Source: a virus (Duplodnaviria; Heunggongvirae; Uroviricota; Caudoviricetes). From it: a DNA stretch of 42,554 bases. Location of the stretch: the IMG/VR virus record IMGVR_UViG_2802429237_000001, positions 1 through 42,554 of that record; one strand, given 5' to 3'. Below are positions 8,512 through 18,175 of this stretch, in pieces. Position numbers and translations under genes: made by a program. Each line of letters opens with the position of its first letter. The stretch's first letter is position 1. A model generated the notes under the pieces. That model did no database searches. It saw only the letters and a list, made by a program, of their open reading frames with translations, and was not told the origin of the DNA.

Positions 8512-8973
8512 CTACTGGTTACGTTTCTTTAGTGCCAGCATGTTCTCGAAGGCTTCCTCGTAGAGCTTGTTTAGTCCACGTAGCTGGTTAAGGAGTTTGG
8601 CTTTTTCTGACGCAGGTAGAATCTCGAAGAGGTTAAGTAACTCTGCCTGTTCTTCATTGACCAGCCTCCATCCTTTGCCTGAAAAGCTATCATCATAAGT
8701 ATCTGATGATCTTACATAATTCATTAAGTCTTTAAGGTCTTCTCGAATGTCCTCTGGTTTTACCTTTAACAGAGCCGCAAATTTTAGCGCAGCGTCGGTA
8801 TTTACCGGTATCTTGCCGTTCAGATACTGGCTAACGGTGCCTTGAGATTCGAACCCCAACAGCTCAGCCGCCAGCTCTTGAGTCAGCTTCAGCTCTTTTT
8901 TTCTTGCATTCCATGCGGCTTTTAAATTCTTGCTCGCTTCTGGAGTTGCAATCACTTCGCGTGTTTTTTTCAT
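8512..8973 (-). CDS. racR: RacR-like HTH (XRE-family) prophage repressor, no peptidase domain
   Basis: 153 aa; HTH segment LTQELAAELLGFESQGTVSQYLNGK; divergent from the cro-like gene; RacR-like size and position; no S24 peptidase C-terminal domain. Confidence 0.8.
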   Translation of the reverse strand: MKKTREVIATPEASKNLKAAWNARKKELKLTQELAAELLGFESQGTVSQYLNGKIPVNTDAALKFAALLKVKPEDIREDLKDLMNYVRSSDTYDDSFSGKGWRLVNEEQAELLNLFEILPASEKAKLLNQLRGLNKLYEEAFENMLALKKRNQ

Positions 8974-12882: not shown

Positions 12883-14049
12883 ATGATATCTGCGATGTTA
12901 TCAAATGTGAAAATATTTATGAATCTGCAAAAAAGAAGAAAAGTTCAAAAACTAAACTATCGCGGGCAAGTTTCGAAACTGAAGAGGGGGATATTTAATT
13001 CTCTGAAAAGCACGGATTGGGAAGGAGTAGAAAATGCGAAGAGAAAACTGGAATATTACAAACGCACTCGTAAGCTACGAGTCTCGAAGAAAAAGTTGAC
13101 AACAAGTAATAAAAGGGTGGTTTTTTCTGCTCCGATATCTATTAATTATTACAACGATCGTGATTTTGAAATCATGAATAAATTTTTAAATAATTTACGC
13201 GATTGCGTGTTGAAGAATAATCGTGTTTATATAGATTTTTCTTCAACTAAATATATAAGTGCAGCTGCTATGTTATCTTTTCTCGCTGAAGTTGATGTGC
13301 TTATTAAGAAAAGTGAATTTGGAGTAAATGCCATAGGGTTTTCACATCCGAAAGACAAGAAAATTGAAAGCATTTTGAATCAAGTCGGTTTCTATGATCT
13401 ATTAAGGAAACCTAAAAGAGAAACTGAAAGTTATGATGATGTGACTTTTTGGAAATATACATCAGGTTCTTGTTCTGAGCCTCTTTTAGCAAAAGAAATG
13501 ATGGTGGAAATAAAAAAAGAGTTAGAAAGAAAATCATCAAAAAAATTATACCGTGGCTTTACTGAGGCCATGTCTAATTCTGTCGAGCATGCTTATGTTG
13601 ATGATTTAATGCATACGGAAGATGACGAAACAGCTAAGTGGTGGACCTTTGCTGGCATACATGACAAAAATCTTACAGTGGTAATATGTGATAAAGGAGT
13701 GGGAATACCTTCAACATTGCCTAAAACACAAGGTGTAAGTGTGCTAATGAACATCTTCAAAAAACTTAGAGTTCCATTAGCAAATGTAAAGGATTCTACT
13801 TATATAAAGGCTTCCACGTTACTTCAGGAAACGAGGACTGGGGAGCTGAACCGAGGTAAAGGCTTGAATGATATCAAATCGGTAATCGATTCAATAGGTG
13901 ATGGTTTTATGGGGATTTTTTCATCAAAAGGGCGCTATATTTACAAAGGGAAAACTGGCATTATTAACGAAGTGCTTAGAGATTACAAAAGCTCTGTTAA
14001 TGGTACTATAATTGAATGGACAATTCCTTGTGAGGTGGAAACTGAGTAG
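12883..14049 (+). CDS. GHKL-family ATPase/serine-kinase-like protein (RsbW-like C-terminal domain) with Lys/Arg-rich N-terminus
   Basis: 388 aa; Bergerat-fold motifs: N-box EAMSNSVEHAY, G1 box ICDKGVGIP, G2 box NRGKGLNDIKS; N-terminal 75 residues highly basic; AT-rich coding sequence. Confidence 0.7.
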   Translation: MISAMLSNVKIFMNLQKRRKVQKLNYRGQVSKLKRGIFNSLKSTDWEGVENAKRKLEYYKRTRKLRVSKKKLTTSNKRVVFSAPISINYYNDRDFEIMNKFLNNLRDCVLKNNRVYIDFSSTKYISAAAMLSFLAEVDVLIKKSEFGVNAIGFSHPKDKKIESILNQVGFYDLLRKPKRETESYDDVTFWKYTSGSCSEPLLAKEMMVEIKKELERKSSKKLYRGFTEAMSNSVEHAYVDDLMHTEDDETAKWWTFAGIHDKNLTVVICDKGVGIPSTLPKTQGVSVLMNIFKKLRVPLANVKDSTYIKASTLLQETRTGELNRGKGLNDIKSVIDSIGDGFMGIFSSKGRYIYKGKTGIINEVLRDYKSSVNGTIIEWTIPCEVETE

Positions 14050-14050
14050 T

Positions 14051-14365
14051 ATGAAAATTATAAAAGTAGCCAGTCGTTATCCTTGCCCAGGACCTCGTTT
14101 TAAAAGATTGGGGCCCGCTTCTGGTGAGGAGTTTCGTGAGTGGGTAGAAAGAGAGCTTAAACATTCACCAGATCTAACAATAGACCTTGATGGAACGGAG
14201 GGGTATGGTTCTTCTTTCTTGGAGGAGTGCTTTGGCGGATTGATTAGGCGTGGCGTGAGTCCTGATAAGGTTAAAGGGATTAAATTTATCTCAGAAGAAG
14301 AACCTGAGTTAATTGACGAGATAAATGAATATATCGAGGACGCTATAAAGGTATCTCATGGCTAA
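14051..14365 (+). CDS. STAS-like domain protein (DUF4325-type)
   Basis: 104 aa; starts 2 nt after the upstream stop with SD gaggtgg; core LTIDLDGTEGYGSSFLEECFGGLIRRG resembles DUF4325/STAS-like proteins as I recall them. Confidence 0.65.
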   Translation: MKIIKVASRYPCPGPRFKRLGPASGEEFREWVERELKHSPDLTIDLDGTEGYGSSFLEECFGGLIRRGVSPDKVKGIKFISEEEPELIDEINEYIEDAIKVSHG

Positions 14366-14876
14366 TTCAAGTATCCAGGTCTGTACTTGGAGTGCAGACT
14401 TTTGGTGTAAGTTTTTTTCTTTGTTTAAAGATGAAAATCAGTATGTAACTTGGTTTTTAGTTTTAGTTGGATGGGGGATTACGGCATATATTGCTTATCT
14501 CCAAACCACAAAAAGTAGAGGAGATGCTATTAAAGATGCTCATAATGAATGGATCGGTGAGTTTAGACAAAAACTGGAGTTGCTTGAGGATTTTGCCTTA
14601 GAGTTCTGGGCTGAAGATAATAATAAAGAACCTACACTGGCGTTAGCAAAAATGAGTAGGGAGGTTAAGAGTTTAACTACTATCGCTAAAGAAATTGAAA
14701 GGGCCGGTGGTGAAAAATATAAGGCAAAATTGTTTAAGGAATTACGCCAAGCCATGACATATGATAGTGATGTTCACAACCGACCTCTAAGACCTGATTG
14801 TATGCAAATTGTTAGGATTAGAGAAACATGTGCAAGTTTGAGAAGTGCGTACGGGCGCAAAAGCTTGACTGAATAA
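14358..14876 (+). CDS. Single-pass membrane protein with coiled-coil-like C-terminal domain
   Basis: 172 aa; start overlaps the upstream stop (ATGGCTAA); one hydrophobic helix YVTWFLVLVGWGITAYIAYL (about residues 30-50); SD aaagg. Confidence 0.6.
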   Translation: MANSSIQVCTWSADFWCKFFSLFKDENQYVTWFLVLVGWGITAYIAYLQTTKSRGDAIKDAHNEWIGEFRQKLELLEDFALEFWAEDNNKEPTLALAKMSREVKSLTTIAKEIERAGGEKYKAKLFKELRQAMTYDSDVHNRPLRPDCMQIVRIRETCASLRSAYGRKSLTE

Positions 14877-15273
14877 CCTCATATTGCTGAGTAGCTGGTA
14901 CTGCATATTATTATGAAAACACATCGTGGTTTTTATATAAAAGCTGCTTATTATTAAGAGATCTGTTTTATGTTTTTGGCTAGTAAAATGTGATTCTTAA
15001 CTTAAATGTTCCCTTACACTAGATTTATAATATCATCGTGTGATTTATAAACTATGCATTAGTAATAATTAATTTTTCGGAAAAATAGTTAAGTAAAATT
15101 GCTGCGTGTGCTTGAGGCTATCTGCCTCGGGCATGAACACCAACGGCAGATAGAGAAAAGCCCAGTTAACATTACGCGTCCCGCAAGACGTTTAATATTA
15201 ATCTTAGGCCAATTTCATGCTAGACACATGGATGTTAGCCTCTTACGTGCCGAAAGGCAAGGAGAAGCAGGCT

Positions 15274-15429
15274 ATGAAGCAGCAAAAGGCGATGTTAGTC
15301 GCCCTGATCGTCATCTGTTTAACCGTCATTGTGACGGCACTGGTAACGAGGAAAGACCTCTGCGAGGTACGAATCCGAACCGGCCAGACGGAGGTCGCTG
15401 TCTTCACAGCTTACGAACCTGAGGAGTAA
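15274..15429 (+). CDS. hok: Hok/Gef-family type I toxin
   Basis: 51 aa MKQQKAMLVALIVICLTVIVTALVTRKDLCEVRIRTGQTEVAVFTAYEPEE; matches the Hok/HokD (RelF) pattern; in-frame upstream extension from 15217 may correspond to a mok-like leader. Confidence 0.8.
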   Translation: MKQQKAMLVALIVICLTVIVTALVTRKDLCEVRIRTGQTEVAVFTAYEPEE

Positions 15430-15497
15430 GAGACCAGGCGGGGGAGAAATCCCTCGCCACCTCTGATGAGTCAGGCATCCTCAATGCACCCACACTT

Positions 15498-15528
15498 AAC
15501 CCGCTTCGGCGGGTTTTTGTTTTTATTT
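15498..15528 (+). terminator. Intrinsic terminator of the hok transcript
   Basis: aacccgc-ttcg-gcgggtt followed by tttgtttttatttt. Confidence 0.6.
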
Positions 15529-15649
15529 TCAACGCGTTTGAAGTTTTGGATGGTGCCGGAATAGAATCAAAAATACTTAAGTAGCGCGCAGGGAGAAGAG
15601 GGATGGACCCCGAACAGGGGAGTGCTATTTATCTGGAAGGATTCTGTTG

Positions 15650-15823
15650 ATGAAAATCGAAGAATTACGTGAAATTTTTAGTGAAGATGGCCTCTATGCT
15701 GTGCGCGTTGAGAATGGAGAAGTTATCTACACAACGTTAATTCCTGATGATCATGTGATTTTATCTATCGAGGCATTCATTGAATACTTGGAAAGGCTCG
15801 GTTTCAAGGTGGTTCGGGAATGA
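15650..15823 (+). CDS. Hypothetical small acidic protein (57 aa)
   Basis: Hand-translated: MKIEELREIFSEDGLYAVRVENGEVIYTTLIPDDHVILSIEAFIEYLERLGFKVVRE; SD ggaagga 7 nt upstream; absent from the track because below 60 aa. Confidence 0.35.
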   Translation: MKIEELREIFSEDGLYAVRVENGEVIYTTLIPDDHVILSIEAFIEYLERLGFKVVRE

Positions 15824-15882: not shown

Positions 15883-16482
15883 ATGGCGCATATACAACTG
15901 GTTAAACAAACTTCTTCTGGTTTACTTCTCCCGGCGACGCCAGAGAGTTGCGATTTTCTGCATCAAATCAAAATAGGCGAGTGGATACACGCTGATTTTA
16001 AGCGCGTTCGTAACTACGCATTCCATAAGCGTTTTTTCAAACTTCTGCAACTCGGATTCGATTACTGGACTCCGGTCGGAGGGGCGATCACGCCTCGCGA
16101 ACGAAAACTGGTTTCAGGATTCGTTGATTACCTGTGTGAATCAGTAAGCCGGGAACATACGCCAGCTCTGAGCGAAGCCGCAGAGCAATATCTGAATACA
16201 GTTGCGGCACGCAGAACCCAGGATACGGCATTGCTAAAGTCGTTTGAGGCTTTCCGCGAGTGGGTAACCATTCAGGCCGGATTTTACACCGATCATGTTT
16301 ATCCGGACGGTAGCCGTGGGCGCAGGGCGAAATCCATCGCGTTTGCGAATATGGACGAAACCGAGTTTCAGCAGGTTTATAAATCTGTACTGAATGTGCT
16401 GTGGAACTGGATCCTGTTCCGTAAATTTTCCTCTCCGGAGGAAGTCGAAAATGTGGCCGCGCAGTTACTGGAGTTTGCGTAA
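15883..16482 (+). CDS. nin-region hypothetical protein (Qin ydfU-like position)
   Basis: 199 aa from ATG at 15883 with SD ggag (track start 15871 is TTG); stop overlaps the next gene start (TAATG). Confidence 0.6.
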   Translation: MAHIQLVKQTSSGLLLPATPESCDFLHQIKIGEWIHADFKRVRNYAFHKRFFKLLQLGFDYWTPVGGAITPRERKLVSGFVDYLCESVSREHTPALSEAAEQYLNTVAARRTQDTALLKSFEAFREWVTIQAGFYTDHVYPDGSRGRRAKSIAFANMDETEFQQVYKSVLNVLWNWILFRKFSSPEEVENVAAQLLEFA

Positions 16483-16772
16483 TGGTGGATTTACGTAAAG
16501 CGGCGCGGGGGCAGATGTGCACCGTCAGAATTCCTGGCTACTGCAATCACAATCCCGAAACTTCTGTGCTGGCGCATTACAGGCTGGCGGGGACGTGCGG
16601 AACAGCGACAAAACCACACGATATGCAGGCAGCGATTGCCTGTAGCTCATGCCACGATTTAATCGACGGGCGGGTAAAAACCAGCGATTACACCAAAGAA
16701 GAATTACGCCTGATGCATGCAGAAGGTGTTTTTCGCACACAAGAAATCTGGAGAAAGGAAGGTTATTTATGA
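16482..16772 (+). CDS. ybcO: YbcO-like putative nuclease (DUF1364-like, Cys-rich)
   Basis: 96 aa with cysteine pattern CTVRIPGYC...CGTATKP...ACSSCHDLIDGR resembling DLP12 YbcO as I recall it; same length. Confidence 0.7.
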   Translation: MVDLRKAARGQMCTVRIPGYCNHNPETSVLAHYRLAGTCGTATKPHDMQAAIACSSCHDLIDGRVKTSDYTKEELRLMHAEGVFRTQEIWRKEGYL

Positions 16773-17311
16773 TTTACCCAACAAATACAGGCAAAAGCGG
16801 GGAACACCTTCGTCTCACCACGCTGGAAAGTGTCTGGATTCAGGGAAAACTGCGCATGTGGGGGCGCTGGTCGTATATTGGCGGCGGTAAGACGGGAAAT
16901 ATGTTTAACCAGTTGCTGACCTCTAAAAAGCTGACAAAAACGGCAATTAACGAGGCGCTCCGGAGGATGAAAAAAGCAGGTCTGGACAAACCTGAACTTG
17001 AGGCTTTTTTGCGGGAGATGATCAACGGCAAGCAAAAAAGCTGGTTGGCGCATTGTACTGATGCAGAGGCGTTATGTATTGATAGAGTCATAAGTGAGGT
17101 GCTAGCAGAGCATCCTGGATTGATTAGTGTCCTCCGGCAACGGTATGAAGGACGGGGGATGACTAAGCGCAAAATGGCTGAATTGCTAAATGATGCACAT
17201 CCTGAGTGGTGTTTTAGCACATGCGAAAAGCGAATTGCTAATTGGTTGGCTGTTGCTGAGTATGCCCTATATATTCCCATGCGAGAATCATTTGCTCAAA
17301 AAATAGCTTGA
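16769..17311 (+). CDS. Putative late-gene antiterminator Q-like protein
   Basis: 180 aa from ATG at 16769 (ATGA overlap with ybcO stop); last gene of the early-right operon before a terminator and the lysis region. Family not confirmed. Confidence 0.45.
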   Translation: MIYPTNTGKSGEHLRLTTLESVWIQGKLRMWGRWSYIGGGKTGNMFNQLLTSKKLTKTAINEALRRMKKAGLDKPELEAFLREMINGKQKSWLAHCTDAEALCIDRVISEVLAEHPGLISVLRQRYEGRGMTKRKMAELLNDAHPEWCFSTCEKRIANWLAVAEYALYIPMRESFAQKIA

Positions 17312-17436: not shown

Positions 17437-17637
17437 ATGAATCAGACTGGTCAACCCAGCTATGCGCTTTTCGCTGGGAATGATAGCAACAACCTCAAAA
17501 CGTTTGTTCTTGAGGTTGATTGCTACCGCACTGAAGACGCGCTACTAGCAATGGAGAAAGCTATAAGCGAATTAAAAATCTGTCAGCGTCAGTTCGGCTA
17601 TGGAAATGATTCTGGTGTCAGAGCCATTATTCGATAA
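17437..17637 (+). CDS. Hypothetical small protein (66 aa)
   Basis: ATG at 17437 preceded by strong SD gaggaggggggg; 3' end overlaps the convergent minus-strand gene by 11 nt. Confidence 0.45.
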   Translation: MNQTGQPSYALFAGNDSNNLKTFVLEVDCYRTEDALLAMEKAISELKICQRQFGYGNDSGVRAIIR

Positions 17638-18175
17638 TTCTTTCTCCAATAATAACTGGCAATGGAATGAGTACCTCCCAGAATGGTTGATACCCTGCGT
17701 AAATCTGAGTTGTTTCTCCCTTCCAGTAAAGATCCAGCCTCTGAGATATTTCTACTGGGGAGCAGTTCAGATTTAACAAATTCATATCGCCTCTATGATA
17801 GTTCGACGATGAGTTGACTTGAAATATTGGGGTATCAAGTGGAAACTTTGAAAAACCTCTGAACCAGGCTGCTTCTTTTACAGACTCACATGCAAAAATT
17901 GATTGGAAACGCGATGGTTTTTCAGGGAAATGTGATTTTCTTCGTTCTTCCAGCAGTATTTCTATTATTGCTCCAAATCGTTCATCTGAGCTGACGAGGT
18001 TTATGTGGTAGTTGAAAAAAAGATTATTTGCATGCCTGGATACGCCGTCGGAAAACAATGAGCTCGTATGAGCCTGAAGTGGAACGATTGGGCAGTGCGG
18101 TTCAGTCAACTCAATTTTCATGCCTGACGTCAGTGTACGCAGCCTGTCAAGTGTGAAAAAAAGATGGTTCGCCAT
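17627..18175 (-). CDS. Hypothetical cargo protein (182 aa), opposite strand between Q-like gene and lysis genes
   Basis: ATG at 18175 with SD aggaaag; lower GC than flanks; no domain recognised. Confidence 0.6.
   Translation of the reverse strand: MANHLFFTLDRLRTLTSGMKIELTEPHCPIVPLQAHTSSLFSDGVSRHANNLFFNYHINLVSSDERFGAIIEILLEERRKSHFPEKPSRFQSIFACESVKEAAWFRGFSKFPLDTPIFQVNSSSNYHRGDMNLLNLNCSPVEISQRLDLYWKGETTQIYAGYQPFWEVLIPLPVIIGERIIE

Follow-up and report, generated by a model that had tools for sequence, protein, structure and literature searches.

The open reading frame (ORF) at positions 15650-15823 on the plus strand of the window (the whole 42,554-nt stretch of DNA analysed here) is a protein-coding gene under purifying selection. 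It is almost certainly a genuine gene of the Rem family, and its small acidic product is probably a short-form Rem antirepressor acting on the DicA-class repressor of the resident prophage, the latter assignment being drawn from sequence comparison. Here we present the features of the gene, the evidence for its classification and its relation to known antirepressor systems.

The window represents a Rac-like lambdoid prophage in which int, xis, recT, recE and kilR lead to the immunity region, followed by replication genes, hok, the Q region, lysis genes and terminase. The features that surround or bear on the ORF are the following.

8512..8973, minus strand: prophage repressor of 153 aa, proposed target of Rem (HTH_3 and a DicA-like C-terminal tail)
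15106-15279: Sok RNA model RF01794 (Rfam, 96 bits)
15217..15429, plus strand: mok/hok toxin gene, with hok at about 15274-15429 (PF01848, E=1.7e-23)
15498..15525, plus strand: intrinsic terminator of the hok transcript (7-bp GC-rich stem, then a T run)
15538..15567, plus strand: putative sigma-70 promoter TTGAAG-18-TAGAAT (consensus scan and comparison)
15574..15649, plus strand: conserved leader of about 75 nt (87% mean column identity, short and long rem loci)
15608-15620: small hairpin CCCC-GAACA-GGGG within the leader
15635..15641, plus strand: Shine-Dalgarno sequence GGAAGGA (read directly)
15650..15823, plus strand: rem (short form), putative antirepressor, 57-aa acidic protein (ORF, PHROG 340, conservation)
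15883..16482, plus strand: DUF1367/IrsA-like gene directly 3' of rem (PF07105, E=1e-97)
16482-16772: YbcO/DUF1364 gene, downstream of the DUF1367 gene
16769-17311: DUF1133/Q-like gene, downstream of the YbcO gene

An earlier note on this DNA had placed the ORF between hok and nin-like genes, and this is accurate: hok lies upstream and the DUF1367, YbcO and DUF1133/Q-like genes lie downstream. Two other parts of the region carry accessory genes. Between the replication region and hok (12883-14876) there is a three-gene insert encoding a 388-aa product ('ATP-binding' in RefSeq), a 117-aa STAS-like DUF4325 protein and a 172-aa hypothetical protein; it gave no PADLOC match and has the look of a moron or a candidate defence cassette. 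A 182-aa DUF2441 ORF on the minus strand (17627-18175), just 3' of the Q-like gene, likewise gave no match in the PADLOC search and is a possible moron.

The ORF extends from the ATG at 15650 to the TGA at 15821-15823 and comprises 57 codons, in exact agreement with the coordinates and translation given in the earlier note; translation might alternatively begin at an in-frame TTG, position 15647. The product (MKIEELREIFSEDGLYAVRVENGEVIYTTLIPDDHVILSIEAFIEYLERLGFKVVRE; 6.7 kDa) contains 13 acidic and 6 basic residues (pI 4.5) and is as acidic as had been claimed. The good ribosome-binding site noted at the time was also recovered: GGAAGGA is located 8 nt upstream of the ATG and is nearly constant in the homologues, as is GGAAGGATTCT across 20 aligned homologous leaders. 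A length of 57 codons is by itself within chance, dozens of ORFs of similar size being present in the window; the evidence for a gene was therefore taken from comparison and conservation.

The comparison set consisted of 80 homologous loci and the window, i.e., 81 copies representing 28 nucleotide alleles. The stop codon is shared and the frame uninterrupted in all 81 copies, so that the reading frame is indeed kept in related prophages, a point on which the earlier note had asked for a check. The same ATG is used in 75 of the 81 copies, and the six most divergent ones (Rac-SA53 type, L084) start one to a few codons off; the in-frame sequence 5' of the ATG is interrupted by stops at differing positions. 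Variable sites number 24, 8 and 36 at codon positions 1, 2 and 3, respectively. Mean pairwise dN/dS among the alleles of short rem is about 0.18, and the comparison with the most diverged alleles yields 0.12-0.15 (dN 0.17, dS 1.2-1.3). In each allele tested, stops interrupt both other frames of the plus strand.

Among 5.8 billion proteins searched, 77 relatives were recovered, most of them 57-58 aa long; they come from E. coli, Shigella, E. albertii and Salmonella. The family is narrow, as only 48 of 1.84 billion representative proteins were hit in a profile search; a scan of a one-genome-per-species contig collection found 3 loci only. Diverged proteins of the same short architecture (40-57% identity) occur in Salmonella and Hafnia (one in Hafnia alvei) and retain G14, D34, H35 and S39. 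Conservation is strongest in the C-terminal half, where D34, H35 and S39 are invariant and F43, E45, Y46, R49 and G51 nearly invariant in proteins as distant as 40% identity. The existence of diverged homologues with this architecture identifies the short form as a stable architecture and not a truncation.

Membership of the Rem family is indicated by a match to the PHROG 340 profile (E=4.3e-18), in which residues 1-56 align to profile positions 13-68 of 85 and which also matches the longer Rem proteins. The precomputed family PF27490 is found on all database homologues of the ORF; scans of the ORF with NCBIfam and with a Pfam model set from which PF27490 is missing gave only sub-threshold noise (DsbC_N, PASTA, adenylosuccinate lyase). 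In tblastn searches of phage records the matches are annotated as rem, the best one being Rem of phage Rac-SA53 (72% identity, residues 4-57). BLASTP against the 83-aa Rem of E. coli K-12 aligns residues 1-26 only, with 73% identity. When short and long forms were aligned with MAFFT, Y16, V18, D34, L38, F43, L47, L50, G51 and F52 proved invariant, and the long form carried an insertion of about 29 residues relative to the short one. The residues absent from the short form fall between a beta-hairpin and the C-terminal helix and correspond to the Cys-containing segment of Qin Rem, so that the short form retains the Rem N-terminus and the C-terminal helix. With 57 aa the product differs from the full-length Qin Rem architecture (83-86 aa with the central Cys-containing segment); since these central residues are absent, it is a short variant and not an orthologue of the experimentally studied protein. 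AlphaFold models were of moderate confidence (pLDDT 76-77) and matched no known fold, and structure thus contributes nothing to the assignment.

The genomic position agrees with that of other Rem-family genes, the ORF lying between hok and the Q-region genes behind a shared promoter and leader. The order in Qin of K-12 is hokD-rem-ydfU-ydfT(Q), and that in Rac-SA53 is hok-rem(58 aa)-irsA-ybcO-Q. In a closely related prophage of E. coli LWY24 (L003, 16001-16213) the position between hok and the DUF1367 gene is occupied by an unrelated 70-aa ORF, for which no similarity to Rem was found, and the repressor type differs. The sequence 5' of that ORF is also different and resembles the one preceding the most diverged rem homologue (L243), and the rem position may hold alternative small-gene cassettes. 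A further observation concerns database entries named Rem (L085-L087/L244-L246, P0085-P0096), many of which are frameshifted or fused and have only the first approximately 30 residues in common. Their sequences suggest a recombination or decay hotspot right after the conserved N-terminal 26 codons of rem.

Judging from its upstream sequence, rem appears to have a dedicated promoter and a constrained leader. TAGAAT occurs 80-83 nt 5' of the ATG in 39 of the 42 unique upstream sequences; in one sequence carrying a 12-nt duplication the distance is 93 nt. A TTGnnn hexamer is present 16 or 18 nt 5' of it, with eight different -35 hexamers amid divergent sequence. A conserved module takes up approximately the last 95 nt before the ATG in both kinds of rem locus, short and long, including loci with unrelated sequence farther upstream. 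The promoter-leader contains TAGAAT, the GCGCGCAGGGAGAAGAGGGATGG block and the hairpin. The leader of the window is 88% identical to that of Qin and 81% identical to that of the Rac-SA53 type, for which coding dS is 1.2-1.3. Its conservation is not due to coding, as 1-nt indels in the hairpin loop shift the upstream frame. Support for a folded RNA is weak (RNAalifold covariation term of -0.19; single-sequence folding z-score of about -1.3), and an Rfam search over the leader found no family. A reading of CCCC-GAACA-GGGG as a lambda-boxB-like element was dropped, there being neither a boxA nor a known N-like protein here. Rfam scored IsrK (RF01394) at 25.7 bits (E=0.003) over 15438-15519, short of its gathering score of 50; this weak match overlaps the 3' end of the hok transcript and its terminator, and probably reflects terminator likeness.

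Searches for a LexA box near the ORF with the 20-mer consensus, allowing up to 3 mismatches, gave no match. The pattern CTGT-N8-ACAG with 1 mismatch matched 10 times, no more than expected by chance and never near the ORF. The absence of a LexA box indicates that the trigger of rem is probably not direct SOS control. The intergenic region of the immunity module and the rem promoter/leader have no sequence of at least 9 nt and no palindrome in common.

Function has been studied for Qin Rem: Ragunathan et al. (2023, PMC10448788) showed that it frees dicBp from DicA repression, with a 165-fold effect, and brings about filamentation that depends on dicB/dicF. Expression from foreign promoters suffices for derepression, and the condition inducing Qin rem was not found (PMC10448788); in a 2024 preprint, the mechanism and inducer of Rem are still given as unknown. 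Functional data were not found in the literature on ECs1774 and Rac-SA53. As a member of the Rem family, the short form would be active as an antirepressor with the resident repressor as its physical target.

That repressor is of the DicA class and non-cleavable: Pfam gives HTH_3 only, with no S24 peptidase domain found in the 153-aa protein, and the tail is DicA/GfoR-like. Over its C-terminal 42 aa the repressor shows 38% identity to DicA, and the motif LLxLFxxLPxxEK is common to this repressor and GfoR of Gifsy-1. The protein is 100% identical to 'dicA' of phage Rac-SA53 (KU052037). Linkage between rem and repressor type was counted in 46 short-rem and 54 Qin-type rem (83 aa) loci with 10-kb flanks, in which the repressor and neighbouring modules were typed. 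The loci are non-independent lineages, and part of the association listed below derives from common descent.

Window-type repressor family (100% or 70% identity branch): short rem 42/46, Qin-type rem 0/54
DicA-family repressor: short rem 0/46, Qin-type rem 54/54
YdaS-type cro: short rem 42/46, Qin-type rem 0/54
YdaT: short rem 45/46, Qin-type rem 0/54
Downstream gene DUF1367 / YdfU: short rem 32 / 12 of 46, Qin-type rem 0 / 53 of 54
Q type DUF1133 / YdfT: short rem 31 / 9 of 46, Qin-type rem 1 / 48 of 54
Window-type O-like replication gene: short rem 7/46, Qin-type rem 0/54
YdaV: short rem 21/46, Qin-type rem 2/54

The type of rem tracks the immunity module, 4-9 kb away, more closely than the gene 60 nt downstream, as expected of a cognate antirepressor-repressor pair. 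The remaining four short-rem loci carry RacR (2), a CI-like S24 repressor (1) or another type (1). The DicA-family repressors found with Qin-type rem represent four immunity types that are 42-64% identical in their HTH half, and one identical Qin Rem allele was found with all four. The linkage is supportive of a cognate pair, but it is not proof, as the loci are not independent lineages.

The description of the ORF as unannotated in the earlier note holds for RefSeq/PGAP, which marks only a pseudogene fragment, but not for the databases as a whole: the exact protein is deposited as 'hypothetical protein' on 185 contigs, and GenBank KU052037 (phage Rac-SA53) names the 58-aa homologue Rem. The RefSeq/PGAP feature covers just codons 1 to 25-26 and is labelled 'hypothetical protein', 'incomplete; missing C-terminus' and pseudogene. 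Examples of such fragment records are NZ_CP083263.1 and NZ_CP035832.1 (L001, 3211-3288, and L002, 3210-3284). The call likely results from the use of a long Rem as the reference protein, and looks like a systematic mis-annotation.

If the RefSeq/PGAP call were correct, the ORF would be a decayed, functionless remnant of a longer rem. Such a remnant would explain why the PGAP feature in E. coli JNU and 025542-1 stops after 25-26 codons, and why the BLASTP likeness to K-12 Rem ends at residue 26. Against it stand the intact frame in 81 of 81 copies, the dN/dS of 0.18 and the bias of variation towards third positions, together with the strongest conservation in the C-terminal half, which holds for Hafnia and Salmonella proteins of the same short length at identities as low as 40%, and a PHROG 340 alignment that continues beyond the N-terminus to residue 56. 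The intact frames and the selection data contradict the pseudogene call and largely refute this explanation, which we regard as most improbable. Selection might instead act mainly on the promoter/leader, as a regulatory RNA or an operator, with the ORF product being secondary. The leader is as strongly conserved as non-synonymous sites, keeping 81-100% identity where coding dS is above 1, and is common to short and long rem genes; however, the coding frame bears its own signature of purifying selection, Qin Rem protein made from foreign promoters suffices for derepression (PMC10448788), and the leader shows almost no covariation, a z-score of only -1.3 and no Rfam family. As the main explanation of the constraint this is very unlikely, and a conserved leader and a selected coding gene can both be true together.

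A connection with the adjoining hok gene, in the form of an antitoxin-like or HicA-like RNA-binding protein, is hardly credible, even though one JGI record labels a homologue 'predicted RNA binding protein YcfA (HicA-like)'. Hok is a type I toxin and has its Sok RNA antitoxin here; Pfam, NCBIfam and PADLOC gave no HicA or toxin-antitoxin match, and the PDB entry of HicA, 4c26, was hit with a non-significant E=0.82 over 23 residues, with no fold match. The rem promoter is located past the hok terminator. Two short-rem loci lack hok, and in one of them (L235) unrelated sequence precedes the rem module. The proposal of a small regulator or antitoxin-like protein made in the earlier note was accordingly right in kind as far as a regulator is concerned, given the antirepressor activity shown for Qin Rem, whereas its antitoxin part is unsupported in view of the Sok RNA, the separate promoter and the lack of a toxin-antitoxin profile. 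It is also conceivable, if rather unlikely, that the ORF product is a working member of the Rem family directed not at the resident repressor but, in trans, at the repressors of co-resident prophages, or at another host or phage protein. The antirepressors of Gifsy and Fels-1 work across prophages (PMC3121763), a single Qin Rem allele pairs with four DicA types only 42-64% identical in the HTH part, and four of the 46 short-rem loci carry unrelated repressors; on the other side, short rem is tied more tightly to the module of window-type repressor, YdaS and YdaT, at a distance of 6-7 kb, than to the gene 60 nt downstream.

The reading that we prefer, a short-form Rem acting on the resident repressor, can be put as a sequence of proposed steps. 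The gene would form a self-contained module behind the hok terminator, consisting of promoter, leader of about 75 nt, strong Shine-Dalgarno sequence and coding sequence. Once made, the 57-aa acidic protein would bind the prophage's own non-cleavable DicA/GfoR-class repressor (8512-8973, minus strand) and strip it from operators between the repressor and the ydaS-like genes, and the early operons would thereby become derepressed. A tentative extension, which we consider possible but doubtful, is that short rem with its LexA-independent promoter and leader is a non-SOS induction switch of Rac-SA53-type prophages, in which the leader (as operator or RNA) senses a host or environmental signal and the short and long Rem proteins are specificity variants for different branches of DicA-class repressors.

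Many enterobacterial prophages (Rac-, Qin- and Gifsy-like ones, with relatives in Shiga-toxin-producing strains) have repressors that RecA cannot cleave and are induced only via small antirepressors, and the assignment to Rem offers the present prophage a plausible route of induction. To call the 57-aa form a working rem gene corrects a recurrent RefSeq annotation. The natural pair of short and long Rem provides a way to map antirepressor-repressor recognition, and the LexA-box-free promoter and leader, conserved in both forms, provide a handle on the inducer of rem.

Among known systems, Qin Rem of K-12 (b1561, 83 aa) is similar in its first 26 residues (73% identity) and in its C-terminal helix motif, in its place after hokD and before the Q-region genes, in its promoter hexamers and their spacing, and in its leader (88% identity); its partner repressor likewise has a DicA-type tail. 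It differs from the 57-aa form of the window in possessing the Cys-containing central segment of about 29 residues, and the repressor of the window belongs to another branch (153 aa, with YdaS-type cro and YdaT) and not to DicA/DicC. Rem of the functional phage Rac-SA53 (KU052037, ALP46928.1, 58 aa) has the same short architecture (72% identity), the same order hok-rem-irsA-ybcO-Q and a 100% identical repressor; its rem is a diverged allele (dS about 1.2), and the name Rem was given in Rac-SA53 by similarity only.

[quoted passage not shown] 2011, PMC3121763). The genes for these antirepressors lie away from the immunity region, in an operon of the order dinI-antirepressor-irsA under LexA control, and DicA and RacR were placed in the Gifsy repressor group (PMC3121763). 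GfoA, GfhA and GftA of Gifsy prophages and FsoA of Fels-1 (Salmonella), each only about 70 aa long, bind short non-cleavable repressors of the DicA/RacR group and thereby inactivate them. Like their genes, rem is located outside the immunity region, past a terminator and directly 5' of an irsA/DUF1367 homologue; it differs from the LexA-controlled dinI operon in lacking a LexA box and in being preceded by hok instead of dinI. The DUF1367 protein of the window is 54% identical to STM2620 of Gifsy-1, which follows a small ORF after dinI; from the operon order of Lemire et al., this small ORF is putatively gfoA. On that reading, the ORF of the window would occupy an antirepressor position common to three related phage types. 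Homology to GfoA could not be demonstrated at a significant level; hhalign gave E=0.077 (probability 0.7%, 34 co-linear columns) for Rem against the GfoA alignment and E=0.17 against the single GfoA sequence. The Gifsy system is an analogue with the same genomic position and not a family to which the ORF can be assigned. In Tum of phage 186 and AntC of N15, too, a small protein binds the repressor and takes it off the DNA (cited in PMC3121763); the logic is like that proposed for Rem, whereas the proteins themselves are unrelated, larger and under SOS control (LexA).
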